Part shown: positions 1 through 42,159 of the stretch, in pieces | Numbering within the stretch: position 1 is the first letter of the stretch | Layout of the letters: each line of letters opens with the position of its first letter | NCBI GenBank assembly: GCA_002633005.1 | Contig: NMRA01000272.1 | Coordinates: forward strand, 62,001 to 126,000 | Reading direction: 5' to 3' | From: Phoronis australis | Taxonomy: Eukaryota; Animalia; Phoronida | DNA: 64,000 nt | Program-made: the position numbers and the translations under genes | The notes under the pieces: generated by a model | Databases searched by the model: none | Told to the model about the DNA's origin: nothing | Seen by the model: the letters and a program-made list of their open reading frames with translations, nothing else

Positions 1-421
1 AAATTAGTTCACTTTGAAGGGCAAAGTTTTGGGTAATCCGGAACTGGGTACATTTTAAAATTAAAGTTGTAAGGAAGTCTGAAATATTTAAACTGTTTCA
101 TGAAAGTCAAAGAACGAGAACATGTGACATTGTGTTACATTTAAGACCGCGATAGTTATACATACATGTAGTTCTCATGAGGTACAATTGGATAATTTAA
201 CCTTGCTTCCGTAAGACAGCTCTTTGTTGATTGGACCCTTTCGCAAATTCCCTGAAGAAAAGGTCCCCGGAAGCGAGATAGATATGTGTCAAGTGCGGTA
301 TATGTTGTAAAGCTGTGGCACATACGTTCCACTAACAGGGTTAGAATGTGTTCCAATTTAGTACCGTGTTTTGTCTTCCTATGCATTGGTCGTGTCTGAT
401 TAATTCTCCTGGTGTATTTAG

Positions 422-772
422 CTGGTCCCCCTCTTGGCCCCCATAGCGTCAAAGTTCATTTGATTGGGCAGTACACACTGGAGACGGGGGAAAGTACGGT
501 GATTGTCACAAATGGCACGGCACTGGACGTCGTCTGCACATCCGGAATTGCCTACGTGGGATCCAACATCAACATAAGGATTATCACGAGACATGGAGTC
601 GCCACTGATCTGAAAACGCGCAATATACGCGCGTTCAAGAACTCATCCACCCAAGCCACTGCATCTTCAATTATCACTTATCGTCATCACGGAGGTACAT
701 TAGAATGCACTGCAACCAACACGCGAGCCAAACGACTACGAGCACTTAAACAGTTTCTCATTGATGTGACAG
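422..772 (+). CDS. Internal coding exon, Ig-like domain, of a predicted Ig/TSP1 single-pass membrane protein
   Basis: Acceptor tgtatttag|CT and donor ACAG|gtagg; 351 nt, open, phase 1-1; ...NGTALDVVC...GGTLECTATN...FLIDVT shows the Ig B- and F-strand cysteine pattern. Confidence 0.8.
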
Positions 773-1394
773 GTAGGTCTACAGAAATTAAAAAATGTCC
801 AGTTTTGTTCGCTATCTTGCATAATTAAGCAAATAGTGCCACCAAGCCGAAGTAGGACTTGTGCTCATTAGATGTGTTTCAAGAAGCTTAACGTTCAGCT
901 TACGTGCAGGGTTTTTGAACCGCAACTAGCCCCATATTGATATGATTATTTCTGAAATGCTACAACCGTCAGCTTTACTGCTATACACCTTATTCACGCA
1001 GTCGCCATTATAAAAATGAGCCTATTTGTAAGGTTTAGAAATCACACATTCCGCGGTTAATCACTGTGCGGAGCGGGATTTTTTAGCATGCCTCGTTAAT
1101 ATCTATGTCTCAAATGGATTGTTTTTTAAATTTAAAAAGAGGCTTGCTTTTAAAATGGCGACTGCCTGTAATTTTACAGCAAAAATGATGGTGGACAATT
1201 CCCATTGTGATAATTAATACAGGGCAACAAATTAACCTCACTTTTCAGATCTGGCTCTTTTGAGCTTCCGTTGTTACGCTAGTGTCCGTTTCATGTAACT
1301 TATCCCAAAATCCATGACTGGCACTCAGTACAACAAAGTTTAAATGAGTAAATTTTTGCAATAGTGCAAATAATATTAATATGAATTTTCTCAG

Positions 1395-1718
1395 TTGGAC
1401 CATACAACACGGCTATTGAAAGTGCAGACGCCACAACAAAAGTTGTTAATGGTGAGGTAATCGTTGGAAACGGGACACTGGCACAAATTCGTTGCGTTGC
1501 GACGGTTAATCCACTAGCTCTGATGAACTTTTCTTCAAACCTCATCAGCTCCGCATTGCCCATTAAATCCAAAACCCGTGACATATTTACTCGGATTGCG
1601 AAGCAACTATCTTTCACCAGATTCATGGATCATGAAAAGGAGACGTTCGTTTGTTCTGCAACCAATACACGCAATCCATCGCTGGTACAATCCGTCTCTG
1701 CCAACTTGAGAACTGTAG
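1395..1718 (+). CDS. Internal coding exon, Ig-like (C2/CD80-like) domain
   Basis: Acceptor ttttctcag|TT and donor GTAG|gtaag; 324 nt, phase 1-1; GPYNTAI...NGTLAQIRCVATVNP...LSFTRFMDHEKETFVCSATN. Confidence 0.85.
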
Positions 1719-3313
1719 GTAAGAAATCAGCGTTTAACTTAGATAGAAAGGAAGAACAGGGGCCACCTCTGCAGACGCGACCAAATTCAACAAAACAGCA
1801 TCGTCAGAGTTTGGTCATCTTTTATTTAAATCTGTGTTTGTCCTCCCTTACGACCTTCTAGATCCGTCAGTGCACTCATCATGCAAAGGGTAGCAAAGAC
1901 CACTGATTTCCGAAAAAATACAACACAAAGAGCATGGCTTCATATGTTGAGTAGTTGCTGAGAAGTACATCATGCCAATAACAGGAGCAATAAATTTAGA
2001 TTAACGTATTTAATAGTCTTTCACATTTCAATCCAAAGATGGGATCATTTCCATTGTCTTACTTTAGTCTTTCATCGGGGAAATGGTTTTAGCAAGGGGA
2101 ACTCTGTTGTTGGGGAGGCTTGTAGCAATTGCACCTTTGCACCATATGCGTATGTTTGGTGATGGCGTCTCTGCTATTATTGTCATGCAATTTGTATCCT
2201 GAAATAAGAATATTAATGCACAATCATAACACATTGTGAAAAAAATCCAGATCTTGATATTTTCCCCATTCAAGTAACCTCGGCGACGTTCAGCACTTGA
2301 AACGGTGCACAGGCTGTAGAATAGAAATCACAAAGATAACACACTACACATTAACGCATATTCTCCAAGATGGCTGAACTTTCATACTAGCGACAACTTG
2401 CTTAAACACTGCTTCTCTTCCTCGCTTTCCAAAAATGCCCTTAAGGTGGAATAGTAAGAATGTTGCTCGTGAAAGTAACGAGTAAACACGAACACAAAGA
2501 GCCTCAAAAACCTCGAGTACCCCTGTTTCAACAAGAGATTTTGAAACAGTCCCTTAGACCGTGTGCCACAGAAGTCGGAATATGCACCAAATTTTAAGTG
2601 CGCCCTTACATTGCACGAACCCATAAAGTGAACGTTTCCATAGTGGCCTTAGGCCTCTTTTCACTCTCGGAATTAACAATGTTGTTACTCCTAGCATTCT
2701 TCCAGACTTTGGATCCCGCAGTAGATGTTTCTTATCTAATTTTTGTATCCAATAAAGAATGACTTAGACTAGGGATCTTTTGGGACCCTAATAAAGTGAA
2801 CGTCTTTAACGATTACCCAAAGAAGGGGTGGGTAGAGGTAAGACTGTTGTCAGGCCCTACCTAACGCTGAAAACATCCCGATTTTCCTCCTCGTGGCATG
2901 TTATTTCCACTGTTTGCTTGAAATTCTTAATGTAGAAAAAATCACTTAAGACACGGGAGACATCTGCGTCAATTCACATCAAAACAATGGCAAAGCACGA
3001 TAGCAAAAGTAGCAAGACAAATATGGGCAGCCAAATTTCCCAAAAACTTTGTTTTAGAAAACCGGCAGCTCCAGAGCACTGCGAGGTAATCGTTTGGATA
3101 ATCAGAGTGGCTAAAATGGTATACGTAACGATATCTGCCAAAACAGACTTGCCTAGACGGACTTGATTGCACAAAGCTACATTATAAGGTGATTTATACA
3201 TGTTTTTATTATCAGCATTATTAATATTATTATTTCTTTACTCTTAGTAGTATAATTATTATTATTGTTACTATTATTGTATACTGAATACATGCACTCC
3301 CCGTATTTTGAAG

Positions 3314-3502
3314 TTCATGGAAAGTGGGCAGCATGGTTGGGCTGGGGAGAGTGCAGTAAAACTTGCGGCGTTGGAATTCGCATACAATTACGTACGTGCA
3401 CAAACCCTCCACCCTCACCACAAGGAGGCATGTTTTGCATTGGATCCAATCAGATGTTTCACACGTGTGCGAGTGAACGACGATGCGACTATTATTACAA
3501 AA
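3314..3502 (+). CDS. Internal coding exon, thrombospondin type-1 (TSP1) repeat
   Basis: Acceptor ttttgaag|TT and donor AAAA|gtaag; 189 nt, phase 1-1; VHGKWAAWLGWGECSKTCGVGIRIQLRTCTNPPP...C has the WxxWxxW, CSxTCG and RxC TSP1 signature. Confidence 0.9.
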
Positions 3503-4429
3503 GTAAGGTTTTTGAATTTCTCTTTGGAACGTAGGTAACAATATCTTGAGTTGTAAAAGTAGATGTAGGTAACGCTGGTGAATGTTAGACAAATGGTAAG
3601 ATCTTATTTGAAAGAAGTAACAGCCGCGTCAATTAGCAATTTTGCGACTTAATCCTACTGCGAGTTATGCATCACGGGGACGTCCCCGTAGATCATTTGC
3701 CGATCTTTTAACAGCCCACGATTTTTCATGTATCTTAAAAACTGACAAAAACATAACAGCAGGCGGCGGGCCGTAACTCCAGCTTTTTCACCCTGTGACC
3801 ATGTCAGACTGGAAACTTATGTCTCCCTAGATATATCTTCAAGTATTTGTTATTCCAAAAGTACAATCTAAAGTTCTCATTTCGGTAAATATACGTGTAG
3901 CTTTGTACTTTCCTAATAAAGTAATGTTTAATAAGAGGTGGCGCTATATGTCTCTTCCTTAACCAATCACCAGCTCAGAAACTGATCAAGTGCACAAGGT
4001 TATAAGGGGGGCTCAGAACATTTGTCACAGGGGTTTGCCTATCAGAACAAACCTCAATACACTCGTCACACTTTCTTCACTCTGTCAAAAACTGCATGCA
4101 AAGAAAGAAAAGTTTTGAGTTATTTCACATCGCAGGCCCTACAGATGAGCACAGAAACTTTAGTCATTCTTGTATTTTGGCCTTTTCATTCGTACTGAAA
4201 CCAAGCTAGACAAAGAAACCCGACAAAAAACACAAAATTGGCACTTTTCACGACAAAACGACCACTTCCCTGCCGATGCTCGACTAAAGCCAGTATCATT
4301 TTTTAAAACAAAGTTCCTACCGATTACAAAAATGTGGCCCGAAAGTACTGTCAACCAACTGTTTTTTTGGTCTAAGCGTCTCATAGTTTCATGCTGGGCA
4401 GTCTAACTGGGGGGGGGCTTTGTATTAGA

Positions 4430-6665
4430 GGGTTCTGCAGTGCGTGTAGTCATGGAGTGCAGGCAGCCTTAATATTTATGTATGTGATCTGTTTACTCAG
4501 TGCGGGTCTCTCGACAAGTCCCAGACGCATACTATAGAGTCAAGTCACTTTATTGAAATGTACTCATCCTTAATTTTCGTTCTACTTGTTTTTATATGAG
4601 AACCGTATGGGCAATGTTTCTAAAAGTTTTATTATAGTCTCATTATCAAAAATACCATGAGGATCAGTTTTCATTCGTTTTCTATCCTGCGTTCCATCAT
4701 ATTTCACTTTGATGTTGTACTCTGTGAAATCTATGATGTGCTTGTGGATGTGTTTGTATTGGTTTTGTGTTGTTTTGTAAGTGTGTGTGTGGTGTGAATG
4801 GGTCAGGATTGTACCACTATTATTTGACTGTAATTTGCATAACCATTATAATGGCAGGTGAACTTAAAGTAACCTCACTGCATTGCAGAGGGCTGAGTCT
4901 TCGTGAAAGACGAAAAGATGTTCTCAGTTATTTAGGAGAAAAACAGTATTCGATTTATTGCTTACAGAACACACACTTTACTAAGAGAGAAGAAAATATT
5001 AGATCATTGTGGGGATATGAATGTATTTTCAATTCAAATATCTCAAACTACCATGGAGTGGCGATCCTTTTTAAGAACACTTTTGAGTACAAATTACACA
5101 ACATTATTCATGACTACAATGGTAATAAACTAATTTTGGATATTACTATTAATGAGACAAGAATAACGTTAATTAATACGCATTGTCCAAATAGGGACTC
5201 GCCGTCTTTTTTGAAAGAATAAAACAAGATATTCAAGATATAAGAAATCACTCTGTTATTTGGGCAAGCGATTTTAATCTAATTTGCTCTCGATCAGTCT
5301 AAGGACACTCTTAATTATCGGCAGATTAATAACCCGAAGTCACGGATTAAGTTGATGGAGATTTGTACAGAATTGTCTATTGATGTGTGGAGGGAACTAA
5401 ATCCCAATAGTAAAGAATACATTTGGGGGGCTGGAAGTAAACAATCCAGACTAGATATTCTTCTAATTTCTGAAAATCTTTTAGCCGATATTGAAGACTC
5501 CATAATTGAATTCGGGTTACCGGTCCGACCATTCAGTTGTAACGGTATGGGTCCAGAAGGAGGAAATCATTTTGGAAGTTTAGTGCTGCAGTAAAGGATA
5601 CTATTAAAATCGTTAAACAACAGTATATGACGGACTATATTCAGACAATTGATAGTACTAGTAATTCAGATTTACAATTATCTATAAATGATCAACATTT
5701 TCTTGAAACGTTGTTGATAGAGAGTCGCGGCAAAACAATTTCCTTTGCTACTTACTTAAAAAAAATTGATAGAACTGGACAGCAACTTATCGAAGAAATA
5801 GATTTGTTGGAAAAAAGTCTAAGCCTTGACAGGGAACTACTAGAACAAAACAAATAATCGACTTGCCGAGCTAAGGCAAAATCAGTTAAGAGGTCTTATG
5901 ATTAGGTTGAGAGCAAGATGGATTGGAGAGGATGAAAAACCTTCCAAATATTTTCTTTCCTTGGAAAATAGGCATTACAAAAGTAAGTGCATTCCTTTTT
6001 GTGGAAATCTGACAACACTAAAACCAATAGTGAAGAAGAGGTTATTCAGGAAACCAAAACTTTTTATGAAAATTAATACAAATATAGACATTCCAGCAAT
6101 ACTGCTTTAGAGACTTTTCTTGATAAGGTTTGTGCCTCCAAACTGAATGACACAGAAAAATTAGAAGGTCTTCTTACATATGAAGAAGTCACACAATGCT
6201 TGAAAAAATGAAAAACAACAAGAGCCCAGGCTCTGATGGTTTTTCAGTGGAATTTTTAAAATTTTGTGGGCTGACATTGTTCGCTCACTTAATACTCGTT
6301 TTACAGTTGGCCAGTTATCATCAACACAAAAAGAGGGAGTGATTACCTGCATCCCTAAGGGAGCAAATAAAAGTAAACATTAAAACTGGAGACCCATATC
6401 CTTACTCAATGTGACATATAAATTGACTTCTTTGGCTGTGGCTGAACGGCTAAAATCCGTTTAGGGAAAACTAATCCGTAAGGACAACACAGGTTTCGTT
6501 TCTGGAAGAAGTATGAACGAAAATATCCGCGTGCTATATGCTTTTTAAAATGTTTTATGCCCAGGCAGCTAACAAACATGGATTGCTTTTACTGATTGAT
6601 TTTGATAAGGCATTTGATTCATTGGCGTGGAATTTTATTTAAAAAGTTTATCTTTCCTTAATTTT
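4430..6665 (+). mobile_element. Tx1/L1-clade non-LTR retrotransposon A, 5' part (APE endonuclease, linker, start of RT), decayed
   Basis: ORF2 start MAGELKVTSLHCRGL at 4851; YCLQNTH, GVAILF, SRLDILLIS, RARWIGEDEKPSKYFLSLE, WRPISLLN, DFDKAFDS motifs broken by stops and frameshifts; left boundary approximate. Confidence 0.85.
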
Positions 6666-9600
6666 TTTTTAGTAGAGACATTCATTAACTCAACCAACCA
6701 GTAAATAATAACTTTTGAATGTGAAGTTGGTAAAATCCATCTTGATGATAAAGGAAACCTTATTGTCATCGAATTACTTATTGAAAATCGAGTCTCAATT
6801 ACGTTAGCTAATATTTATGGTCCCAACAAGGATGACCCTGAATTTTTTAGAACCCTGCTTCAAGTAGTCTCTGACTACAATTCAGAGTTCATAATCATTT
6901 GCGGCGACTGGAATTTGGTTCAGGATTTCAATCTTGACTGTTTAGGATACAAACTCCAAAACAATCCGGCTGCAAGAAAACAAGTTATCAGTCTGATGTC
7001 GCAGTTAAATTTGGTCGACCCGTGGCGGTTACGTAACCCAAATACAACAAGCTATACTTGGTTCAGAATTAACCCTTGTAAGCAAGCCCGTCTGGACTAA
7101 TTTTCTAGTGTCCGACGAGTTTTCCTCTTGGATAGAAAATATTGAAACGTCCCCAGGTCATAGAACCGACCACCATTGTGTCGTGACTACTATTCAGGAC
7201 TCTAAATTTGTTAGAGGTAAAGGTCTATGGCGACTTAACAAATCCTTATTACGTGATGTAGAATATATCAGTAATGTGAAAGACATCATAGTTAAAACCG
7301 AGAAGGAATATTTATCTCCTAATAATGTCTCCAATTTTTCAGACGGTCAGTCCACTACAGACGACTCTCTTCTTCTTGAGATGATTCTACTGAATAATAG
7401 AAATTAAACTTTGTCTTATTCAGCTTTCAATAAAAAAGAAAAGCATCGACATCAAAAGAATTTAGAGGAGCAATTAAGTCTTTTTAGAGAAATGATGTGC
7501 AGCAGTAATTCTTCTCTGGTCCTTGAAATTTATTCAGATTTGCAGAAAGATTACGAATATATTAGAAAGGACAAAGTGAAAGGCGTGATGCTGAGATCTC
7601 GGGCAAAATGGATCGAGGATGGTGAAAAACCGCCCAAATATTTTAGTAACTTAGAAAAACGCAATTACTTGAACAAGAATGCCCACAAACTTATAGACGA
7701 GACTAGACAAAGCTTGATGAACCAAAAAGCTATACTGTGTGCAATCAAAAAATTCTATGCAACTTTACATGCACCCAAAGAAAATGACTCTCTCAAATAT
7801 GAGTTGGAGAACTTGGTGACCCCTGGAAATATGTCGAAACTGGACGCCGACCTGAAAGAAAAACTAGAAGGACCAATAACATATACTGAAGCTGCGACTG
7901 TCCTTAAATGTATGAAAAATGACAAAACTCCGGGGACTGATGGTTTTCCTGTAGAGTTTTACAAATTTTTTTGGAAAGAATTGTCGCCATTTTTGATTAA
8001 ATCTTTTAATTACACTTTTCGAAGCGGCCGTCTCCCTACCACTATGCGTCAAGGTGTCATTACTTTGATTCCTAAGGGCAAGAAGCCACGTGAATGCATT
8101 AAAAAATGGAGACCAATGTCCTTACTAAATTCAAGTTATAAACTATTATCAGCATGTATTGCACAAAGGATAAAATCTCTTTTAAATAAGTTAATTCATC
8201 CTAATCAAACTGGGTTTCTCCCACGTCGCTTTATGGGGGAGAACACCAGACTGATTTATGACATCTTACAATATACTCAAGTTAAGGATATTCCCGGACT
8301 TCTGGTATTAACTGATTTTGAAAAAGCCTTTGATTCTGTGTCCTGGAGATTTCTTAAGAAAGTTCTACACTATTTCAATAATGGTGACGATATTATTCGT
8401 TGGTTCGCAATACTCAATGAAAGTATCCAACTTTCGGTCATTCAGTATGACTTTACGTCCAACTACTTTAACATTTGCCGAGGTTGCAGACAAGGTGATC
8501 CCCTTTCACCTGATCTTTTTTGCTGTGTGCCGAAATTATGGCATCTATGTTGAGGCAATGCGAGAATGTTAAAGGCATAAAAATTGGCCTCCTTAGAGTA
8601 TAAATTAATGCAATATGCAGACGACACGGTCCTCTTTCTAGATGGTTCAGAGACCTCTTTAAAATCTTCACTTAATCTTCTTGATCAGTTTGCTAAGTAA
8701 TCTGGATTGACACCCAATATCGATAAAACTTTTTGTATATGGATTGTTTCTAAGATATGTTGTGGTGATAGGCTTTGCTGTGAAAAAGATTTAAAATGGG
8801 AAAGTTCCCAGTTCACATCTCTTGGAATTACTTTCTCTGTCGACTTACAGGACAAGATTCACTTAAACTACAATGTAAAATCAAATGAGGTTAGAAAAGG
8901 CATTGGAAATTGGTCTAAAAGAAATTTGTCTACCTTTGGTAAGATAACGGTTGTCAAATCTTTCTTTTTACCAAAACTGATTCACCTCTTTTACACACTT
9001 CCTCTTGCAAGTGCTACTTTTTAAGGACATTGAAAAAATATACTTTAATTTTATATGGGGTACCTCTTCTGATAGAATATCTAGAAAAACCATGGTGCAG
9101 AAATCTGAAGTTGGAGGTGGGAATATGGTTCATATTGCGTCATTTGTCAAAGCTATTAAACTGACTTGGATTCGAAGATTCTTCAAAAATTATTATAACA
9201 ATGCTTCTCTTTGGCTAAATATTTCATGTGAAATTATTCCTAATATAAAAAATGACTCTTTTCAGTTAGGTTCTTGTTTTTTCCTTGCAGTATCTAACCG
9301 TACTTAGAATATTTTTGGAAGGATATTTTTTATATCTTATACGAATTTATCAATCTTTGTGAGAAAGATGATCCTTTGTACCAACCTTTGTGGTATAACC
9401 CCAAAATTTGTATAGACAGTAATCCAATTTTTGGAACGAGTGGTTTAAAAAGGGTATACGGTAGGTATACGATTTAATTGACCCTGATAAGGGATATATT
9501 TATGATTATCATACCTTTTGTACACGTTTTCAATTTTGTTCTTGTATTACACATTTTCATGGAATTCTAAGTTCAATACTTCGTTCTTGGAATCATCTAA

Positions 9601-10319
9601 GAGATAAGAATTCTATAGTCACTCCACTTTTTCAAGAACATATTTTTCGAATCTCCTCGGAAAATAAAGGAACTGGGAAATTATTCATTTCTAAATTATA
9701 TGTAAAACCTGTCGCAGAATTGAAGTGGGAGAGAGAAATTAACTTATGCGATGATACTCAATCTTGGAAAAAATTCATTCTGTAATTTATCATTGTACTT
9801 CTGATGTCAGACTCGGTTGGTTTCAATTCCGCATCAACCACAGACTTATTGGTACAAACTCTTAGTTAAAGAAAATAGGTGTTAGTGAATCGTCTTTATG
9901 CTCTTTCTGTGAGCAACATGAAGAAACAATTCTACATTTGTATTGGGAATGTTCACTTGTTCAGAAGTTTTTGGGATGTTTAAGAACATGGATGATAAAT
10001 CAGTGCAATTTCCCTCTGCAGTTAAATATGTCTTCCGCCTTGTTTGGAGACCCAGCCTGTAGGTCAGAAGTTGTAGATTTAATTCTTTGCTTAGCGAAAT
10101 TTCATTTATATAGACAAAGACTACAAAAGACTAAGCCCAATTTTCAGTCATCTTTACGTGAGGTATGTGATTACTACAACCTGGAAAAAAATATTTACAA
10201 TGATAAATTGGATCTTGAGAGATTCCAGGCAAGGTGGTCTTTTTTTGCCTAACTAGCTTTTATAGGGTCCGATAATGTTCGTACTTCGTTTGATGTACAC
10301 TAAACTAGATGTCATATTG
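6666..10319 (+). mobile_element. Tx1/L1-clade non-LTR retrotransposon B, 5'-truncated, nested inside element A
   Basis: NIYGPN, GDWN, ARLD, KTPGTDG, WRPMSLLN, DFEKAFDSV, RGCRQGDPLSP, QYADDT and CSFC...HLYWEC zinc knuckle; flanked by direct repeat ttccttaatttt (6654-6665 and 10320-10331). Confidence 0.9.
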
Positions 10320-12310
10320 TTCCTTAATTTTGGTTGGTCTATCAGAAGGCGGGTGAAAGTCTTTTACAGTAATATTAAGTCATGTGTTGTCGTAAATGAT
10401 CACCCATCTTGCTGGTTCAATATTTTGCGTGACTGCAGACAAGGTGACCCTTTGTCTCCCTAAATTTTCATATTGTGCGCGGAGATTTTAACGTATTTAA
10501 TCAATAATAATAAAAATATTGCTGGAGTAGTTACAGGAAATAAGGACTATTCGATTTCACAATATGCGGATGGGTCGAATTTGTCATAGACTAGCACATT
10601 GACTGTACTACATTTGTTTGCTAGTGTCTTCGGTCTCCAAGTGAATGTGGATAAAACAAGAGCCATACGGTTTGGAAATGAAACTGACAGTGATGACGTG
10701 ATTCGTACAAACGAGTCTGTCTTGGACAAAAAATCTTTTAGATTTTTGGGGGTGGCTTTTGACACTCAATTGGATAGTATGACGCATAAGAACTTCACTC
10801 CAAGATTAAGTTTTTATTAAAAAGATAGAGTCGACGAAATTTAACGCCGTTTGGTATAGTAACTGTAATGGAAACATTAGCTGTTTCTAAACTTAATTTT
10901 TTGTTGTGCAAGTTTACCAAATCTACCAGTAAAAGTCTTGGATGAATTGAATACGACATTTTTTGGATTTGTATGGCAGGCTCGTAATGATAAAATTAAA
11001 CGAACAACGACCTGTTTAGAACTTGATCAAGGGGGACCTCAAAGGGTTAATATGCATACGTTCAGCAAAGCTTTGAAACTCACCATGGCCCGTAGATATC
11101 TTGAAAGCCCTGTGTCTAAAAGTGGTGAATTACTGTACTCAATCTATCTGTTCTTAAAGAATTGTTCTTCATTTGGAGATGACTTTATTAATTCGAATTT
11201 ATCTCTAATATGTAATTCCTACTTGCGCGAAGTATTTGGAAGTATGACATCTTTCTACAAGAAAATAATTTTTGCAAGTAAGGAGGACTTTTTGAATCAG
11301 CCTTTGTGGTTTAATAGTAACTTGGCGATCGGAAAAACAATTAGTGTTTTTATAAGCCTTGGTTTATAAAAGGCTTAAGATTTATTAGAGATATGTATAC
11401 CTCTGATGATGATTTAGTTAGTTTGAACCATAAGAAAAATATGTTCGATGTAAAAACCAACTTCGTATAATATAATGGTGTTGTTTCCGTTCAAAGAAGA
11501 TTTCAAAAAAGTCTATTTCAAAGTAAATTTAAAAGTGTTAATGTCTACGCTCCTTGCATACCTTTAGCAATCACTCACTTACGGGAAGATTTGAAAGGTT
11601 GTAGACATATTTGTTCAGTCTTTAATGACGTTAAGAAACCTTTCAAGTCAGAGTGTAAATGGGAAATAGAGTTAGGAGATAGTTTAGATTGGAAGAAAAT
11701 ATATGCATTGCCTTATGAAATTGTAAAGGATCCCAACATTAGATGGTTCCAATACTACACTGGATTGCAACAAATACCTTTTTTGTCAAAATCCGTGTTC
11801 GGGACTCTAATTCATGTTCCTTTTGTAATAAAGCTCCAGATACTCTGTCATACCTTTTTTGGGAATGTCGCATTGTACAAGACTTCTGGAAGGAATTCGG
11901 ACAGTTAATGCAAAAGTGTCGCTTTCAGCTTCCCAACGGTCTCTCTTACGATCGAGTTATTCTTGGACTATACGAGACGCAAGATTTTCTTTTCAAAATT
12001 TGGTTCTAATAGCCAAATAGTACATTTACGAGGAGAGATGTCAGAAAAATAAACATAATTTCCACAGGCTTATCACGTATACTTATGAGTACTCTAATGC
12101 TGAAAAATTAATTGCATACAAAAACTTTGTACTTCTCTGCGAATTGGGAAAATTTCGTTGTTCACGTTAAGTACACGTAGAAGTTATTTGCTTGAAACGA
12201 GATACGAGATTGGTCTTTCCTGAGGTGTGTATGCGTGAATGGATGGATGTACTTATTGGTTTGTTTGTTTTTGTAATGTTTTATAAATGATAATAAATTC
12301 TAAAAAATAG
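10320..12310 (+). mobile_element. Tx1/L1-clade element A, 3' part (RT, zinc knuckle, 3' UTR), decayed
   Basis: RT resumes where A was interrupted: FLNFGWSIRR...CRQGDPLSP, QYADG, FRFLGV, CSFCNKAPDTLSYLFWEC; ends in AATAAA and an A-rich tail near 12292-12310. Confidence 0.85.
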
Positions 12311-13120
12311 TTGTTAATAAATTACGAGCTTTTCCAGAAAATCCCAGTGCAAAAACCCGCCGAGTGACGCGTCGCTGCCTCGAGATCGCCGATAGGTTAA
12401 TTAGAATTCATGAGAAAAAATATAGTTTCGACTCAGCTGATTACACGAAGTCCTCCTTAAGTTTTCAAAATAGCGTCCCTAACATTTTTAAGTTCCCGTG
12501 GAGTCGGGATTTACTCCATATTAAATCCAAAATCTGCGCTAGATCGTACATGTACTCTGCAACTCGAGAAAATTTTCTGGAGGAACACACATGTTGTTGT
12601 CACGTGATGTTTGTTTGAAGTTCGTCTACGTGTGTGAGTGAATGAGCTCGTGCGTGTCGTCAGAGTTCATTTGCCAGAGTGAACACGATGTAACGATCGG
12701 GAGATTCGGGGGTGTAAGGGTACGGAAGTTTTCACTATCACTGCGTCATTTTTGACTTTAAAAACACCAATTACGATTAATTTAACAATTCCTCATAAAA
12801 ATAACGCAAACGTTTTTACGGTATTAGTTACTTTCGGAAATAAGTGCCAGTATTTATTTCTTGCCAATGCTATGCTTCCCGTATCCTGAATAGATACGCG
12901 AACTTCTGCATTCATTTTGTTGCCACGTGAGAAATAGTAGCAATCGAAGTGGAGCACTGCATGGTCACTTGTCGCATGCGCACTACAGTCGGTTGTCAAT
13001 GGGCAAGAAAATAGTTCTCATTCAATTATTTAAAATGCGAAATAAGTAACCGTTTTTGGCCCTGTTACACAAAAAGTAACAGATCAAGTTTTAGGTGTCT
13101 TCAGAATAAAATTTTAACTC

Positions 13121-13255
13121 CATGTAGAAGTTGTTTACTTTATACGATATACGAGAATGGTCTCTCCTGAGGTGTGCATGCGTGAATGAATTGATGATTG
13201 TACTTGTTTGTTTGTTTTTGTACTGTTTTATAATTTATAATAAATACCTGAAAAT
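13121..13255 (+). repeat. Second copy of the Tx1 element A 3' UTR/tail
   Basis: gtagaagtt...atacgagaatggtctctcctgaggtgtgcatgcgtgaatg...ataataaat closely matches 12175-12305. Confidence 0.75.
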
Positions 13256-13789
13256 GTTTTTTGCAAACCTGGCTAGTCTAAGGTCTACCTGAAATCGCGG
13301 CCAATTTCTCAGTCGCTACCCAGCAATGCACAATTATTGCAACAGGAGCCACCATCTTGAAGAAGAGTGCAGCTACAACCGAGCGAGCGGTCTCTTTCAT
13401 TCTCAACATGCTTACAAATACAAACAAAAAACATTCACTTTGTCTATGTGTAATACCTAACTAAAAAAAACCCCAAGCCTGGCCTACACCTGGCTTTTAA
13501 TATGTTGGGAGTACAAATTGGCCGCGGCAGCAACCTATTTGTTCAGTGCCACCTAACCATTCACACAGCGATGGTATGAGAAGATGGGGGAAATCCTTAG
13601 CTTTTCAAATAGGTTGATTTCATTTACAAAAATTGCAAGCACCAGGGCATATTTTTAAAATTTTAACCTTAAATTATGCTACTTGCTCATGGTTTCAAAG
13701 TTATATCAGTGTTTTCACTTTCTTTTAATTGAAACTTTCTGCTGATAAATTAATAGACGTTATGAAACTGATTTGGCTTAATATTTAAT

Positions 13790-13860
13790 GATGTATGTGT
13801 GTGTTTGTGTGCGAGCGTGTATGTACGTGTGTGTGCGTGTGCTTGTGTGTGTGTGTGTGA
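13790..13860. repeat. Imperfect (GT)n microsatellite
   Basis: Direct reading: gtgtgtgtttgtgtgcgagcgtgt...gtgtgtgtga. Confidence 0.85.
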
Positions 13861-14269
13861 ATGTAATTTTTTTTTCTGCACACAATGCTCACTTTTTGGC
13901 CACAATAGAAATATGCAACCACAGTGTCATCATTATCACTGAACAAATTATAATCCATTCTTACATTTTTGTCAATGAAAATATACATTTTTTTCATTGC
14001 TACACAAATAAATGACAATACAATAAATGCAATTATTAAGCCCAGAAAACGAATCATTATATCCAGGCTTTTAACTGTAATACAACGGCATACGTAAGCA
14101 AAACATAATATTGAGCAAAAATACCAAGGTAAAGGAAACAAAAACAAGAACAAAATAATACGGCAATAAAGAAGAACATATAAACAAGATAATAATATAC
14201 AGAAACATAAAACAAAACCAAACAAAAAGATCGAGCTAACAAAGTGTGGTTATATTTACGTTATCATAA

Positions 14270-17200
14270 AAATGTCTGTATAGTTAAAATAAGAAAGAAT
14301 GAAGGAGTTATAAACCAACTCTAAGTGGCAACTGGAAATGTATTTCAAAAAGATTTCTGAATGGGTTGAGAATTGGTTTTAATTAATTGAACACAATGAA
14401 GATTTATAGTGAGTTGAGGATGAAGCAGAACATTCAAATTATGCTTAACCGACACACTTTGAGTAATAATAGAGTCATTAAAATACAGTCGTTGGAGTCT
14501 GTCGATAATGTGTAGAGATTTTTGCGAACACGTTATGTCGTACCTTTTGAACGCTTTGAACTCTATACGCTATTTTGTCGCCCAATCAAACAGTAAGAAA
14601 GTCCCTTTGTAAAAGACTTACATTTTCTGATTTGTATCATCAGCATATAGAAACGTCTTAGAATACTGTACATCAGGTAGGTTGTTAATAGATAGCAGGA
14701 AATCAGCGGTCCCAAAACACTGCCTTGTGGTACACCAGCATTGACGTACCCAAAGGGGCTATTCGGAGAATTCTCCTCGCGGTGTCGCTGCTGTACTAGT
14801 GGTGATTGAATTGCGCATGCGTCGCTGTCTGCATGTAAACAGCTGGTAAAAAGACGGATTGTTATCAAAATACGTCGTCGCGCTAAGCCTTATTATTGCT
14901 ATTTTCCCTGGTGCAAGTCTTCGACAGGTGATCACAAATTCCCAAAAGACCTAAGGTTGCTATATTCGTGTAGAATTGCGGTCAAAAGGGTCAACCAACT
15001 GACAAAAAGTGTGTGGATGCCAAAGACCCATTGGGAGACTACATAACGTTACTTGGTAAGTTTTTAGCAATCAAGTTTCTATCGACATCGTTCGGTGATG
15101 TTATCACCACCAGTTACCCCAATGAATAACGGGTTTATTGAATGGAGCTAAGTGTTTCTTTTCGGCTAGCACTACATATTCACAGATTGTCCTGGGTGGG
15201 AATGGGCCCAATATAAGAGGTGTATGGTACGTGAGGAAGTCATGGGTGACTTTTCATAGCAGTTTCTCTTCAGAGCTATACTATGTCCAATAAAATTCCC
15301 TAGATGAGTGAGTTTCCTTATTTTATAGCGGACACCATCCCCAGGACTACCAGATTAGTTACCGAATTAACATGAATAAGCTATTCAGTAAACGCTGCAT
15401 TGGAATAAATATATACACCTAGAATGAGTTTTACTTGAGGTCAGAAGCACATTTTAGGTGTCGTGAAAAATGCCCATTGTTAAATCACTTTTAGCCTGTT
15501 TCACACATTTTAATTCAGATCTTAAATGAGACTTGGGTACAAAGATTATTAGTTTCTACATACACTAAACATGAAGATGAAACGTCAAGTATGTTCTGTC
15601 TTACTAAAGTAGTTTTGAATTGTGTTTTCTTTTATAATTTGCTAGTATTTCTCTGACTATTCTGTTACAGGTAAGAAAAAACGACTGAAACCAGCCGGCT
15701 GACCGTCTATTTTACCTTTTGACAAAGTGAAAAGCAATCCTTCAGCAATAACCTGAGAGAATTGAACTTAATTCAGAAATTCAGGATTTGATATGCCTGA
15801 TTATGGACTCCGTTGCGTGGGAAAATTACAATTCTTTTTAACAATGTTGTTTCTTTGTATGTATGTGGTTGTTCAGTTTGCCATTTTGTTTTTTAAATAC
15901 ACTAAAAATTATTTATTCTCGAATCTTGTGAACAGCAGATTCTTATCCAGCAAGCTACAATTGAAAACATTCTTTTCTTGCATGGGGAACTTTTGTTGTG
16001 GATGAGTTAACACAAAACTTAAAATTGTTCAAAGGCCTTCTTAAGAAAGCCCTACACACACAAACAAATCAAATGAAAGTATCTCAATTAACAGGCATCA
16101 GTAGAATAAACATGGAATAATCGTTAAACTAATCAAAATCCTTACCTTTGTATAAGGTCGTGCTTACTTCCTCTCAAAGAAGCACCCTTTTCATGCAACC
16201 TCAGATTCATTTGGCACGGCAACAAGCCATTTCACCATGTATTTAAAGGGCTCGCGAAGTCGAGGCTCTTAATCTATCACCACTAGTACATGGGCGCCCT
16301 CTAGTTAATGTAATTTTTCCGAATAGCCCCATTGGCGATTCATCAGAAACAACTCCATCCACACGAAATCCATAGGTGGTTCTATTTAAAAGATACGACT
16401 GAATAAAACTATGCACTTATTCCATCCTTACGAAGTTTTAATAACAGATTATGTGGCATCATATCAAACGCAGAAGCTAGACCCAGAAAAAGAGCACGAA
16501 CATTATTCCGCTGAGTAGAGACTGTGAATAATCTCGATCAATTGAGACGTGGTGATTTTCCCTGACACCAGTTTTAGCAGAATATAACAAATTGTGAGTT
16601 ATCAAGTAGTCATATATAATGGAAATTTAGTTTTTTTTTAAATCGTTTTGAGAGGAAATAGAATAGAGTAATGGGGCGATAATTGGACACTTCGGTTGTT
16701 GAATCTTTTTATGCACAGGCATCACCAATCCACGTTTCCACTTTGATGGGAAAGTACCAAAATAAAAATCTTATTAAGAAATTTGGTTACTGCACAGTAA
16801 GAGAATTTTCAAGTAATTTGAATATGTTACTCATTATCTGTTGAAAAGTCACTTTTCGAAGTACCAATATTTTAAAGAGGTCTTTCGACCTCATCCGCAA
16901 TGGCTTGAATTAAATATACTGGACGGTGTCGCCTACTATCCATATTTGGAAAGTCACGTGCAAAGTTGCCTCAGTGTGTCTTTTATTCGTGAAACAATTC
17001 AAAAATAAATTTGATTTATCTAATTTTGAAGAAGCATAATCACCAGTGTTATTCTGTTTAAGACAAGGAAATGTACCATGAGTGGACTCACCAAAAGATT
17101 CGTGTATATAAACACGGATACCTCAGCCTTCATTACTGTGATACGCAATAGAGTATTCAGGAATCACACAATCAGATTTAATTTGATCATGCAGCAACTA

Positions 17201-17720
17201 ACCTGCCTCACAAATGGCGACTATTTTATAATTATAGTTATTAGACTTCACAATGTTTATGTTAGTGAATAAGATACTGAACACACCATTGGGTGCGAAG
17301 GGACCAGGATTCGATTTAACATCACCACAGTAGAGGTCAAATTAGAAATTCATTGGGCAGAAAACAGGAACCCCGTAGGTTTCTATGAAAGTAGTCATCC
17401 ACTATCAACTATTTTGCAACCTGTTTCACCTACACAAATATTGCATAACGACTCAAGGCTGCAAGTACTAATAACAAGCTGAACACCTACAGGTATAACA
17501 AAACAAAATACGAAAGCGATATTGACAATACCGTGAAACTAAGTGATGGGTATAACATAGAATAATACTTAAATAGAACAAAACAAATAATACACAGCAG
17601 GGCAAGGGTGACGCAAAAGAAAGAACACATATACTAAGTATCGAGTGACGGACAGGCTTCCAACCAGGTAACCCTGATGCATGAAAACTAGGCAATATAA
17701 ACCAGAGAAGCTGTCGCACA
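14270..17720 (-). mobile_element. Decayed, internally deleted CR1/L2-type LINE, split by a TIR element
   Basis: Minus-strand motifs in order: GDVKSNPGP (17326-17300), APE start IVAICE (~17220), VMPVHK...VSNYRPITL (~16700), LASAFD...LLLKL (~16460), SYLLNR, then after the insertion GVPQGSVLGP (~14730) and YADDT (~14640). Outer boundaries approximate. Confidence 0.8.
14755..16330. mobile_element. Non-autonomous TIR DNA element (GGGGCTATTCGG termini) inserted in the CR1/L2 RT
   Basis: TIRs ggggctattcgga / tccgaatagcccc plus inverted subterminal tgtactagtggtgat; an inverted partial homologue lies at ~40720-41888; superfamily uncertain. Confidence 0.8.
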
Positions 17721-19612
17721 CAACATTTTTATATGCAATTATTTTTTTAGCATCCTAGTACTCGTAAGTATGTGCAAGAAATTTGTGAATATTAGGTATA
17801 TTTTTGTGACATCTAGTAAATCTACTGTTTGGCTAGCAGTAGCAAAATGTTAAATAGAAAATGTGTCTCGTAAAACCCAATAATAACACATTTGTAAGAG
17901 AGACAGTTTGAAGTTGAATGAGGGACGTTTGAAGTAGTTTTCTGAATTCCTTCCAAAAATCTTGTACAGGGCGACAATCCCAAAAAACGTCTGGCAGCGT
18001 CTCTGGAGCTTTATTACAAAAGGAGCATTAATTAGAATCCCGAACTTTGATTTTGGCTATAAAAGCATTTGTTGCAATAATTCCCGGTATTTGATATACA
18101 GGTTAGTTTCAGCAGACTTCATTAACAAGAAAGAAGAGTGTGCCACCAACGAATCACACAGACTATTAGAGGATATTGGAACGGTAAATAAGCATAAACA
18201 AATGATATGATCAACGCGATAGGTAATGCCTGTTGATTGTTAATCAAATTATTTTTCCCATTCTTTACTGAATGCGGTAAGACAGGCACATTGCACAATA
18301 GAATACCAGGAGAACGATGGGTAGAGTTAATACAAACTGGTGACTGAACACATGAAATGTGTTGGGTGGTCTTCAACAGGCGTGGGCCACTAGTGAAATG
18401 GTACGGCTCACGGAGATCATCTAACAAACGTACAATTTAAGTTCACTTTAGTAGGCGAAGAGATACATGTCACATTGCAATTGACAAATCTAACGATAAG
18501 AACAGATTAAGAGGACTGAACTTCACAGACATATGTGGGACAGTTCAGTTATAACAGTTCAGTTATAACGAGTGATCAACAAGTAAACACATAAATAAAA
18601 CGAGGAGCAAAATATAACCATGGGTATACTCATATTACTACGTTTACAAGACTATGCATATGAAGTCTGTGGATCATATCAGCACAAGTGGGATCAGACA
18701 TTACTTTATGGGTGTCTATCCAAGTTTTCTTTATGTGGAAAATCAGAAGCTTACGTTCGCCAGAAACTATGTATTCTAAAGAAATTTGCCGTTTATCATT
18801 TTTAAAGAAAATGCACATGTGATGAGCAATTGGCGTATGACGAATATTCAACAAAGGCGCTTAATATATGGAAACAAATTTCGCATTGGATTAATAATTC
18901 TGACGCAGTCAAAAGGGTCACGGGGGGACGGTGCCCCCATTCAATTACTTAGAATCTCTCCATTGGTATAGTTTCAAGGAATGTTCTAAACCCCCCCTAC
19001 CCCCTCGACCCACGACCCTGTCGACCTACTACCCCCTCGGCCCACGGCCCCACAACCCCTCGACCCTGTCTACAAAAGTTCGACTCGATCTGAATCTAGA
19101 ACAAGCGCTGACTTGCTGATCAACGAGTCGGACCTTCACTGCTTTTTTTGCAATCAAGAGAGTAGATTAGGCAACTTTGAAAGGCAAAAACAGAAAAAAA
19201 TAACCCGACCAAATCAAATCAAAGACTTACCAACGTTACAAATATCGTTCGCGGCAAAGTGTAATCGTCTCGGCTGCTCTTCAGTCAATGGCATATTCAA
19301 GCTCTTTTGGGAGAGAGTGAGGAACCGACGAACATGTAATTTCTTCATTAAATACAAACTGCTAGCTTAAAAGTATCTCAACATTACATAAAGCTCAGGT
19401 TGTTACTGTTTCAACGCCCTCAAAGGTCCTGTTTTGCGCGTACGGGCTCCTGCACCTTCGCACTTGATGCACACCAAGAAAATGCGAGACAACCGGGGTC
19501 TAAAGAAGACAAAAGTCGAAATACCACTTTGGAGCTGTCGCGTTGTTGAAAATGTTACATTTGTTTTGATCCAATGATTGATTTTACTTAATTGGAATAT
19601 TTTCATTTTCAG

Positions 19613-20901
19613 TGGCAGATTATTTATGGAAGCACCTGGTTGAAAAAGGAGAGGCTAATTTCACTGTGATGTTTGCCCTTACTGCCTGCACAACCTCGTT
19701 TGTTATAATGTACATATGGTACATGCGCAATGCATACTTAAAGAAAACAAAAAAACTGGAGAAAGAAGCAAAGCAACAATTCCGTTCACTTGTCAAAAAA
19801 CTAAGATCTCGTCTAGACGAGAATAATCAAAATGACCAGTTCTTCGATGACTTACAAATGGACAAAGAAACTGCTGACATAGGTAGATTTTTTACCCTAT
19901 GTGACCATATGGTAGGAAAAGACAAACAGCATCTTCGTCAGAACGCAGCGTCAAGAACGAAAGAAGCAGTTCTGCTTATTAAGCACGAACTAAACAGAAT
20001 TGCACTCTTTCAAAGCCACGCGACTAGAGACAAGGAAGCCATTGAAAGAGCTTTGCAAAACTACCAAGCTACGGCTGTGTACCACGTTCAAACAGAAGTT
20101 CTCAAAGATAAAACATTGGTAGAAAAATCACGTCAACTTATTCTGGCATTGACCCTCAAATCCACAATAGAGAAAATGGAGCATGATGAAGATCTTGATG
20201 GAATGGAACGACTGCTCTCCGTAGCGGAAACAAAAGGTTTTTTTGATCTTCTGGAAGAATTTGAAATGTTAAGGGATAAATTAACAGACCTAAAAACTTT
20301 GGCTCAGTATAAGCAAATGCTCCTGAAAATGGGGAGAAAGAGGATTGCCGAATTGCGGGCATATAAAGACCCCCCAATACCTGTGCATGAAACGATGATA
20401 GCAACTTTGCTGATACTTGGATTTCGAGAAGAACTTACTCGTGATTGGACAAGCTGCTTGCGAATTTGTCAGGGAAAAAAAGGTCTCCACTGGAATTTGA
20501 TGAACTTCAAGGTGGACAACTTGCATCCGTCTATCGCTGCAAGAGCCATCGAAATCCTTGATATTTACCGTTTGGAGGACCTGAAGGCAGTAAGTAAAAC
20601 TGCGTATCACTTCTATGTGTGGGCACATGCTATAGCCTGTCATGTTCTTCATAAAACCGAAGATGTTGTCCCAGCTGGCCGTGCTCAACAAAGACAATTG
20701 TTGGGAATAGAAAAAGTACCAGCGCAAGTGAGCAGTTGCACGGAAAGGAAACAGAACAATACACTTTCCCGTTGTGGGATTGAGAATCAAATCACTCCCA
20801 GTCTATTCTTTAGCGACAAAAGTAGAAGTGTTGCAACGGTGTACAAGGCAAGTATGGGCGATAGCGTTTCGAGCGTTCTACCTCGTGCAATGGATTTATA
20901 G
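19613..20901 (+). CDS. Large terminal coding exon: TM helix, helical cytoplasmic region, dynein-stalk microtubule-binding-domain-like module
   Basis: Intact ~430-codon frame starting right after acceptor tttcattttcag|TG (phase 1); hydrophobic FTVMFALTACTTSFVIMYIWYM followed by basic RNAYLKKTKK; C-terminal IAELRAYKDPPIPVHETMIATLLILG...DW...LMNFKVDNL...VSKTAYHFYVWAHAI resembles the dynein stalk head; possible AATAAA at 21530. Confidence 0.85.
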
Positions 20902-22569
20902 TGAAACAAGGTGACTTTGAGGAAATACTTTAGAAAGACATGGCACTTCCGGGACTTTCATATGCAGAGCAGTTGTCGTTTTCAAAATGTATTGTACGCG
21001 TGTCTAATGTCGGCTCATAGATAACGGGTAAGGTAGGAACAGTATGGCAGAAGTCATTACGAGTCACTTCGGAGCACCGTTAGAGGCTTTATGGTGCGAG
21101 TACCACGAAGCTACCATCAGATGAAAAAGAATGAAAGCGAGGGATAAATGGATCCAATTCGGGCCCTGCTGTCGGTTTTCAAAACAGAATTGCGGGACAG
21201 TTGGTGTTAATATCTTTGATACGTGGGTTGTATTACGTAGACACAAAAGTGTAGCCAGTGAAATTCGTGTGATCAAATCACGTGCTGATTTCATGAATGT
21301 GATGTAATCACGATTTCCTTGAGTATACGGAAGTAAGATATGAGGTGTTAGGTAATGCGATCTACTTCAGCGCTATAAAGTGGCAAGCGCTGGTTTTCAT
21401 CATGACAACAAAAAATCAACCATACTCTTGCATTCTAATTTCGTCTATATTAATTCACAAAAATAACATTTAACTTTACTTTTTTCACTTGCTGGGTACA
21501 ATATGTTACTATCATTTCCACTGCAACATAATAAAATAGTTACCAACTAGCAACACTATTTGAATGATGTCTGTTGTAATTCTGTCTTTCCAAAAAGGAT
21601 TAAGATTTTAAACACTGCTCATGGCTTTTCTAACACGGCTCAACATTTCCAAACATGGTACAAAGTATTCAAAACATAGTGCGGCACTGAGTCGGTAAGG
21701 AGAACAATGGTCATATCGAGTACTAACCAATTCAGCAAGTCTCCTATCATGTCGACGAGTTTGATATAAGCAACGCTAGTGTCTAGCTGGAAAGACAGGA
21801 CTTCGCGAAATATCACATTGTATTTTCAGCAGCTGGTCATAGCTCTATCTGAACCTTGTTAGCTGACTTTCCAGGAACCCGTTTCATGAACACAAAGTCC
21901 GTTTTTTGGTTTTCGATTTTGACTTAAACAGCCATAGGTGAGCATACAGACTATGATTTCGCTGTCTGTTACGATTCCCAAAACTAAGCCAGGCGGTTTG
22001 CGAAATACGTTTTCAAAAATACCTTAATCTTGAAACTGGAGATTTTTTACAATTGTTGGGATACCTTTGGGATCTCGTTTACATGAGAAGACGTTAGTAT
22101 GAATGGAAAATATTCCATATGTGCAGGTTAGTCACACTACGTTGTTTCTACGGTGCCTTGCCGGTTGTCGAATCGAAATCAGACGATCTCCAATTTGACA
22201 TTGTTTAGGGACATTACAATGTGGCAATATGAAGAAAATCTGTCCCTCGGCAGCTTACAGTGATGATAGTCGTAAATTTTGATCATTTAGACCAACAGTC
22301 CATTGTGACCAAAGTTTCAATCTAAACCTGTTCAGTATCAAGCCTACTTTCAGTCTGTTTTAATTTTGATCTTAAGAAATGCCGTGAAACGTGGTTCAGA
22401 CATATTGGTCTTAAGTTATCAGGATTTCGGTCCACATCAAGACAGAAAAACTCTCACGAAACGGGCTCCAGGTCCATTACCGGACAGGAAATGAAAACCG
22501 TCATTTTTGTGCAGTTTATGTAACAGTAATATCCTACACATTTTGCATTGCACGTAATATTTCCAGACT

Positions 22570-23449
22570 GTGTTCCATCGAAGCAGGAGCCCCGGTTTAA
22601 AACAGATATTCCGGAGTCGAAAACAGACCCGGGCACTTTCAAAACAGTTATAGGGCCCGAAAAACTCGAACCCGGACCTTTAAAACAGGAACCCCGGAGA
22701 TCGGACGGGAAACCCAGACAATTTTTCAAATTTTCTAAGACCGATGTCAGTAGCTTCAAACTTTGAGTTATACCATCTTTCCAGTTGTTTTCTGCGTTTG
22801 TTTGTTAAAAATTGTCAGTAATAAAAAGAAACTTATATCACGTTGACTTTGTTATTTGATTTGTATCGGTGAAACTCGTGTAACTTGTCTGTGGGCAACT
22901 TTCAAAATGATCAACATACGTTGTTACAGTGTCTCGTTGGATAATAAAATTAGGTTAATTTCTGATTATTCAATAATTTGTCCAAAATATTTTCCAAAAT
23001 AAAAAACAAAAATATTATTTCGCCTGTGCCATTCTTGAATAAACCGTCGTGACATGTACCCAACCTCGTGGAAGAAGAATAGTTGATTGAAGAATTGGGC
23101 AACGCAATATTTCAAGGCGTCGAAAGCCGAGTAAAAGACCTCACTTTAGCAGCAGACTAACGTAGAACGCCAACCAGTCACGCATGTAAGTTGTCTAAAA
23201 TTCTCATATAGTAAAACAACATATCACATCTATTTAAAGTAGGAAGATTTATTTTTCAACAAAAAAGTTTAACAGAAAGTGCGGGAGTGATGTTTCTGTC
23301 CCCGGGTTGCCTGTCTGATCCTGGGGTTCCTGATTTGAAGGTGGGGGTTGGTGGTTTTCGGGCTGGTTAGCTGTTCTGAAGGTGCAGGGGTCAGTTTTCG
23401 TCTCCGCGGGAATATCTGTTTTCACCGGGTTCTTGTTTCGACGGAACAC
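22570..23449. mobile_element. MITE with ~150-bp diverged terminal inverted repeats
   Basis: gtgttccatcgaagcaggagccccggtttaaaacagatattcc... at left is the inverted homologue of ...gggaatatctgttttcaccgggttcttgtttcgacggaacac at right. Confidence 0.7.
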
Positions 23450-41888: not shown

Positions 41889-42159
41889 ATTCAAATGCTA
41901 CTTTGGGCTTCTGGCCTTAGATGTGAAAAATGTTGAACTAAGTAAATTGATCAGGCAAGGAAAATTTGTGTGGTATCCTGGCAGGCTCAATCAAATGTTC
42001 TAATATACATGTCGTCATCTCAGCCTTCCCATTGACTTTAGCATTGCATTTTATAAGCGGTTCACTCAATGTTAGTAGTTTAATTCAATCATAATTCACT
42101 TCTGCAAGACACCAATTACAATTTGTAACTGGTAAGTAGTTTAACTATTAAACAGTTAC

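Follow-up and report, generated by a model that had tools for sequence, protein, structure and literature searches.

A spliced gene of Phoronis australis combines Ig-like and thrombospondin type 1 domains with a homologue of the dynein microtubule-binding domain

Cell-surface receptors usually reach microtubules through adaptors or motors. A gene in the genome of the phoronid Phoronis australis raises the question of whether a receptor may instead carry a microtubule-binding head of its own. The gene lies in a stretch of 64,000 nucleotides, hereafter the window (GenBank assembly GCA_002633005.1, contig NMRA01000272.1, positions 62,001 to 126,000 of the forward strand), and all positions below count from the first letter of that stretch. 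The original prediction, made from the letters alone, had joined two immunoglobulin (Ig)-like exons and one thrombospondin type 1 (TSP1) exon, across a long intron, to an exon encoding a membrane helix and a tail likened to the microtubule-binding domain (MTBD) that tips the dynein stalk. The spliced gene is real: we regard the order Ig, Ig, TSP1, helix, repeats, MTBD as close to certain, as exon borders, open reading frame and RNA joints agree. Sequence profiles and a predicted structure identify the tail as a homologue of the six-helix head of the dynein MTBD. If this head binds as its homologue does, the receptor would constitute a direct link from ligand to microtubule lattice that needs neither motor nor adaptor.

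Splicing and transcripts of the gene

All four exons lie where the earlier reading had placed them, and once spliced they encode 716 residues before the first stop, at codon 717. The first three exons (Table 1) measure 351, 324 and 189 nucleotides, have AG..GT borders and are each phase 1/1. The last exon, directly preceded by the sequence ttttcattttcag, begins at 19613, and the protein across the 3502/19613 joint reads CDYYYK-M-ADYLWKH. The membrane helix and the entire cytoplasmic tail are encoded by this one exon. An in-frame stop stands immediately upstream of 422, and the start codon therefore belongs to an exon further upstream.

Four RNA runs bearing the same species label were aligned to positions 301-20300. 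Three of them (X1, X2 and X3) come from one study and the fourth (X4) consists of contigs; the raw-read runs were sampled to about 18-19% each, and a second alignment covered 19400-23400. The joint 772->1395 is carried by 8 reads in X1 and 9 in X2, the joint 1718->3314 by 5 and 3, and the joint 3502->19613, which skips 16110 nucleotides, by 1 and 10, in every case with GT..AG ends on the plus strand. The long joint had been drawn from matching splice phases, and is now borne out by these 11 reads, which have 7 start points and a short side of up to 64 letters. Loose ends at 19613 tell the same from the other side: 10 reads carry the last 30 letters of the TSP1 exon with an agreement of 1, and no other loose end is among those listed at this position. 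In both X1 and X2 every bin from 19668 to 21409 is covered at a depth of 3-18, past the stop codon and with no joint or indel, and the sole coding variant in the last exon, at 20073, is synonymous. A separate first exon near 18580-18625, from which the last exon might have been spliced, was considered and rejected. Depth is 0 in all four runs at 18310-18976 and is 0 again at 19400-19533, so that such an exon is unsupported. Beyond the stop codon, depth remains higher up to about 21400 and fades out near 22480.

None of the four exons is covered in run X3, which is of similar depth, or represented by a contig in X4. Expression among the three runs of one study is thus all or none, pointing to a restriction by tissue, stage or individual. 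The first donor is also spliced to an inner acceptor of exon 2 at 1621 (6 of the 23 reads from 772, three each in X1 and X2). This joint shifts the frame, which stops after 28 new residues, and to judge from its translation the short form would be either a target of decay or a short secreted product with one Ig domain. In the 3' untranslated region, X2 has loose ends on both sides of 21406-21438, which suggests an allele with an insertion or a replacement.

The intron between the TSP1 exon and the last exon had been described as largely debris of long interspersed nuclear elements (LINEs) and MITEs lacking a recognisable host exon, and the description holds for the LINEs and for host-type domains. 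A reverse transcriptase (RVT_1) is matched at 7408-8553 with a Pfam E of 8e-18, an endonuclease at about 6705-7100 and a zf-RVT domain at about 9866, while the 98 further intron frames of at least 50 residues contain no host-type Pfam domain.

Domains of the ectodomain and the tail

The dynein homology of the tail emerges from profiles rather than from single sequences. A single-sequence search with the last exon matched dynein barely (E 0.019), and the exon gives no match to PF12777 (MT) at E 0.1, below the gathering cut-off. In a further profile, 103 relatives are aligned to exon residues 91-365; it contains no dyneins, and three of its members have weak MT matches. This dynein-free profile matches the yeast dynein MTBD (6kjn) at E 2.5e-12, and dyneins make up most of the 60 rows listed in the profile search. 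An AF2 model built from the corresponding alignment of 104 sequences, again free of dynein, has a predicted local distance difference test score (pLDDT) of 92, compared with 40 for a single-sequence model; for the part of the exon beyond residue 365, the single-sequence model is the only one. Comparison of the model with known structures, which the original prediction had proposed, ranks the dynein MTBD first. In VIA the model fits mouse dynein MTBD 3err with Z 15.1 and a root-mean-square deviation (rmsd) of 2.3 Å over 121 residues; the top five rows are all dynein MTBDs (Z 15.2-10.0), and the first unrelated row scores 7.7. The top 13 Foldseek rows are likewise dyneins, one of which reaches E 0.001. 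Identity to the dynein MTBD is 17-19%.

In contrast to the head, the stalk has no counterpart here, and the earlier term 'stalk-like' does not describe the tail well. The helices that flank the head measure only 23 and 19 residues and amount to stubs, and Foldseek fits to whole stalks have an rmsd of 15-30 Å. Upstream of the domain stands a different element, a helical-hairpin repeat of about 52 residues whose two copies match each other as profiles (hhalign probability 94%, E 1.3e-7) and which was matched in none of three dyneins. Because only such short helices flank the head and the hairpin repeat precedes it, the tail is best described as a head without a stalk. Nor is there an AAA ring: Ig, Ig, TSP1, helix, repeats and MTBD explain the 716 residues, and past the end of the frame at 20901 the transcript continues as untranslated region.

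The Ig-Ig-TSP1 ectodomain stands in part. Its TSP1 exon is matched by Pfam TSP_1 (E 2.7e-10), by thrombospondin-1 (E 4.8e-16) and by UNC5B (E 8.5e-9), with UNC5D matched as well. The first Ig exon has a weak Pfam match to Ig_2 (E 0.012-0.018, under the cut-off). The second has no Pfam match, and PDB sequence searches with either exon yield no Ig support; its assignment comes from ESM Atlas matches, which are Ig clusters at up to 0.95, and from its cysteines. The two exons are 24% identical with both Cys aligned, in the pattern of a two-Cys Ig domain, and on inspection the canonical Ig Trp is absent.

Table 1. Features of the gene, with positions in the window and the evidence for each
Feature	Position	Strand	Evidence or remark
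Exon, Ig-like domain 1	422..772	+	AG/GT ends, phase 1/1, RNA depth, joint to 1395; Pfam Ig_2 below cut-off
Exon, Ig-like domain 2	1395..1718	+	Joined at either end in RNA reads; Ig clusters in ESM Atlas at 0.95
Exon 2, short form from inner acceptor; frameshift, 28 new residues, then stop	1621..1718	+	Reads, translation
Exon, thrombospondin type 1 repeat (motifs WxxWxxW, CSKTCG)	3314..3502	+	Pfam TSP_1, RNA joints
Intron of 16,110 nucleotides with LINE remains	3503..19612	+	GT..AG joint in reads; Pfam
Last exon, coding part, 428 full codons and stop	19613..20901	+	Unbroken RNA coverage in X1 and X2
Predicted transmembrane helix, 22 residues, followed by basic stretch	19660..19725	+	Kyte-Doolittle, charge pattern
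Two copies of helical-hairpin repeat of ~52 residues	19984..20289	+	hhalign; helices of the model
Dynein MTBD homologue: head of six helices, CC1 and CC2 as short stubs	20290..20664	+	VIA, profile search
MTBD helix-1 residues R, E, R	20335, 20350, 20356	+	Alignment to dynein
C-terminal tail, 78 residues, probably mostly disordered	20665..20898	+	Exceeds family median (22 residues behind domain)
3' untranslated region, approximate end	20902..22480	+	Stranded RNA depth; AATAAA at 21530

Elsewhere in the window, a search of 722 frames found no second copy of the tail, and a C9orf72-like Pfam match (E 0.037) was treated as chance. On the minus strand, an exon of ACTR6 (actin-related protein 6) lies at 42119-42322 (E 2.7e-15 to human ARP6) and the remnant of a THAP domain, probably from a DNA transposon, at 27774-28082 (Pfam E 7.5e-5). 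Positions 58931-61240 are a tandem duplication with a unit of about 1.17 kb and 94% identity, and 14752-15792 and 40801-41891 form an inverted pair of a 1.1-kb repeat with 82% identity.

Relatives of the tail and its possible function

The original prediction had not recognised this architecture in any known protein. For the full combination this stands, given that an I/C2-set Ig or TSP1 domain occurs in none of the 150 relatives listed, while the tail itself proves to be a mobile module with 222 relatives at E 0.001 in a full HMMER scan. The module is unnamed in Pfam and is present in at least 222 invertebrate sequence clusters, often together with a membrane anchor. The following domain counts rest on the 150 listed of the 222. 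PF23265 (KY-like Ig) is carried by 44, often with a transglutaminase-like core (PF01841), and Pfam MT is matched at E 1e-4 by 10. The named members (30 were looked up) come from molluscs, annelids, a flatworm, a sea cucumber, an acorn worm, tunicates, amphioxus and a sponge. In 75 long members the MTBD ends a median of 22 residues from the C-terminus. A myristoylation motif is found in 26 of the 73 long members with a start Met, against 0.66 expected and a maximum of 4 in 2000 shuffles, and transmembrane helices in 10 of 75, behind fronts that are CLCA/VWA, VWA, EGF, mucin or CD20-like, or short. Three proteins (P0085, P0103 and P0076) have 2-4 tandem MTBDs without a motor and are nearer to dyneins than to the invertebrate module. 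The relatives P0090, from amphioxus, and P0133 combine a KY-like front with a CARD domain, and the front of the sponge member P0051 looks EF-hand-like by eye, without a Pfam match.

The Phoronis tail has the hairpin repeats upstream of the MTBD as in the family, and carries its motifs: the invariant E of helix 1 and W of helix 3, the PP loop, LLLG and F-x-x-W, with the near-invariant P, G, G, F and W all retained. A tree of 50 hand-chosen rows out of 143, including 43 of the family, splits the family from dyneins at 100/100 on its own long branch. In it the Phoronis protein joins members from annelids and molluscs in a loose group (84/84), apart from the other transmembrane ones. On this tree the transmembrane label needs 4-5 changes and never forms one clade in 200 bootstrap trees; a single transmembrane clade is not rejected by the approximately unbiased (AU) test (p 0.103). 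The closest relative is only 39% identical over 111 columns, and the end branch measures 1.2 against a median of 0.54. The gene likely acquired its tail from this widespread invertebrate module through exon shuffling.

Such an origin might also have left a young, lineage-restricted chimera, in which the last exon is a captured copy of the module, free of introns, and the tail drifts with little function. This is unlikely. Helix and tail do share one exon, the family motif is partly lost and the closest relative is distant; about a quarter of the reads from the first donor use the frameshifting acceptor, and one of the three runs is without expression. Drift would hardly be expected, however, to leave the 428-codon frame intact despite about 60-75% divergence from every relative, or to preserve the family E, W, P, G, G, F and W in a domain modelled at pLDDT 92 whose only variant is synonymous, and the missing orthologue may be a matter of sampling.

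The protein is tentatively read, at little short of an even chance, as a type I adhesion protein whose tail tethers the membrane to microtubules statically and weakly, independent of ATP. An upstream exon would supply the signal peptide, leaving Ig-Ig-TSP1 outside to bind matrix or a neighbouring cell, and the basic stretch behind the helix would keep the tail inside. The helical repeats would replace the stalk as a spacer, and helix 1 of the MTBD would dock at the alpha/beta-tubulin interface via its kept R, E and R. As no motor slides the register of a stalk and the helix-3 and helix-6 contacts are changed, binding would be static and weak; clustering of the receptor, by ligand, would supply binding strength. 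A site in cilia, sperm flagella or neurites, offered as examples in the original prediction, finds no support in these results. The recurrence of membrane anchoring in the family, by myristoylation or by a transmembrane helix, favours a membrane tether.

For the membrane helix itself, 19660-19725 is the exon's only uncharged run of 22 residues, free of D, E, K, R, H, P, N and Q, with a net charge of -1 before it and +4 after it. A sequon (NFT) near the helix had been taken as a sign of type I topology. N-glycosylation sites this close to the membrane are not usable, and since the NFT abuts the predicted helix it is poor evidence; the four N-glycosylation sequons in the Ig exons may be a better hint. 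The helix is marginal, at +1.1 on the biological scale and with a Kyte-Doolittle peak of 1.82, below the cut-off of 1.9 applied to relatives. Together with the unseen 5' exon, this would suit a protein that is no type I receptor of the plasma membrane, its helix not inserting or its signal peptide lacking, and that is secreted, internal or of another topology. We consider this very unlikely in view of the uncharged run and its flanking charges, and of disulphide-type Ig and TSP1 domains with four sequons upstream and a cytoplasmic fold downstream. A mucin-fronted relative, P0126, has a comparably weak helix.

The contacts of the head can be compared with those of dyneins. Yeast dynein forms six salt bridges, through K3117, E3122 and R3124 in helix 1, R3152 and R3159 in helix 3 and R3201 in helix 6, and on its binding face E3122 is the only acidic residue; the helix-3 positions vary also among true dyneins (PMC7042235, in its accessible text). 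Contacts of the mouse dynein MTBD are given in the accessible text of PMC6629372. In an alignment to the yeast residues so listed, R, E and R occupy the places of K3117, E3122 and R3124, so that three of the six salt-bridge residues are kept. Basic residues stand beside the lost sites (W+5 R, S-3 K and S+1 K), and the net charge of the MTBD core is +6. Among 141 domains of the family, 139 retain the helix-1 E and 114 have K or R where R3124 lies; both are so in all 12 dynein and tandem-MTBD domains. The half-kept face fits either weak binding through helix 1 or a changed partner.

A microtubule-binding protein outside the dyneins offers a further comparison. Chain L of PDB 9ya2 (residues 1207-1457) matches the model in VIA with Z 9.3 and an rmsd of 3.1 over 123 aligned residues. 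It is likely ICMAP2, a conoid microtubule protein of Toxoplasma, since its 162 residues numbered to 1457 fit ICMAP2 (1678 residues, 10% resolved) and not ICMAP1 (1232 residues), as these are described in the accessible text of PMC12819142. According to the same text, ICMAP2 dimers bind between protofilaments on the outer wall of the microtubule at a spacing of 8 nm; its main part, as accessible, does not mention a likeness to dynein.

Several observations weigh against a receptor that grips microtubules. In the alignment to the residues listed in PMC7042235 (accessible text), T, Q and A stand at the places of R3152, R3159 and R3201. In the family as a whole, a basic residue is found at the K3117 place in just 28 of 140 domains (10 of 12 in dyneins and tandem MTBDs), at W+4 in 18 of 137 (9 of 12) and at the R3201 place in 16 of 133 (8 of 12), where 52 are acidic, and the invariant family Glu could be structural rather than a contact. 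The family patch G-K-x-G-K-E-S-L-K-R-R, which follows helix 3 and is absent from dyneins, keeps its G and K here, with two loop residues missing and K-R-R changed to H-W-N. The signal-peptide exon is not among the exons seen, the predicted helix is less hydrophobic than those of 7 of the 8 transmembrane relatives, and no orthologue with an Ig/TSP1 ectodomain is among the relatives listed. The short reads establish each joint singly, and no single read covers the whole transcript. The Z of 9.3 for 9ya2 chain L is lower than the value below which the tool advises caution with helical folds. The accession list of PMC12819142, in its accessible text, assigns 9YA2 to the other microtubule, contrary to the title of the entry.

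Throughout the family basic residues have been lost where K3117 and the helix-3 and helix-6 contacts lie, often with acid at the place of R3201, and this suits a real single-pass receptor whose MTBD fold docks another cytoplasmic partner, such as a signalling adaptor or a cortical scaffold, instead of microtubules. This is possible, if doubtful. The conserved patch not found in dyneins and the family's own long branch (100/100) are in line with it, and MTBD-like folds appear in putative chains of radial-spoke entries (7jrj_I, Z 7.0; 7jtk_C). Radial-spoke parts need not contact a microtubule. On the other hand, the E-x-R of helix 1, on the side that faces tubulin, is the best-kept surface feature of the family, the Phoronis protein holds more basic residues in helix 1 than most relatives, and helix-3 contacts shift in true dyneins as well (PMC7042235, accessible text).

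Should a static tether be correct, it may be one member of a larger group. Invertebrates may have a class of membrane proteins, so far unrecognised, which hold microtubules by a domain taken from the dynein foot, this gene being its Ig/TSP1 receptor and the same tail standing on lipid-anchored transglutaminase-fold, CLCA, VWA, EGF and mucin proteins from sponges to amphioxus; we hold this tentatively, as somewhat less probable than its contrary. In either case the family offers a natural experiment on a dynein foot without stalk and motor, on its affinity and on the contacts it needs, and the tail domain is small and predicted to fold well. Should binding be absent, the fold has been put to use with a different partner, which is likewise unreported in the literature searched.

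Comparison with known systems

All parts of the gene are known already; the literature searched describes neither their combination nor the family of the module. No such receptor or module was found there with narrow terms in the open literature, subscription journals lying outside the search. The dynein heavy chain has a ring of six AAA+ modules and about 4000 residues. Its MTBD (the middle of PF12777; 3ERR, 6RZB, 6KJN and 8I3J) shares the six-helix head, the CC1 and CC2 stubs and the helix-1 contacts with the Phoronis tail, which in contrast belongs to a membrane protein without AAA ring or long stalk, has a repeat upstream and has changed helix-3 and helix-6 contacts.

The MTBD fold is also matched by 9fqr_Xl (1326-1491), 9e5c_2e (116-414), 7jrj_I (461-534) and 7jtk_C with Z 7-9. 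These putative axonemal chains are too short for dynein heavy chains, and the accessible text of PMC11779644 does not mention an MTBD-like fold. The 'MTBD-like' element of TTLL11 (PMC12366701) was set aside; in that source's accessible text it concerns motifs of TTLL6/7 and is unrelated. ICMAP2, if 9ya2 chain L is correctly assigned, is a non-dynein protein with an apparent MTBD fold in its resolved globular domain that binds microtubules and, unlike the Phoronis protein, is no receptor.

On the outer side the closest likeness is to UNC5, which is built as Ig-Ig-TSP1-TSP1-transmembrane helix-ZU5-UPA-death domain. The order of Ig, Ig, TSP1 and membrane helix is the same. In contrast to UNC5, the Phoronis gene has a single TSP1, its exon being joined directly to the helix exon in the reads, and its tail consists of repeats and MTBD, with no Pfam match to ZU5, UPA or a death domain. 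The Ig exons match no UNC5 structure in PDB sequence searches, and the likeness is probably generic because the TSP1 exon scores better against thrombospondin-1 and properdin.

The C-terminal repeats and MTBD are shared with KY/hillarin-like (PF01841, PF23265), CLCA-, VWA-, EGF-, mucin- and CD20-fronted invertebrate proteins. Many of these are anchored by a lipid or a helix, and their database names reflect their fronts and not the tail. In contrast to the KY/hillarin-like members, the exons seen of the Phoronis gene encode neither a transglutaminase nor a KY-Ig part.

Membrane proteins that hold microtubules directly do exist, CLIMP-63 and the NOMPC channel doing so via a basic tail or ankyrin repeats. 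An anchor, a helical spacer and a microtubule contact would be common to these and the Phoronis receptor, in which the contact would instead be made by a folded domain of the dynein type, beneath an ectodomain of Ig and TSP1.

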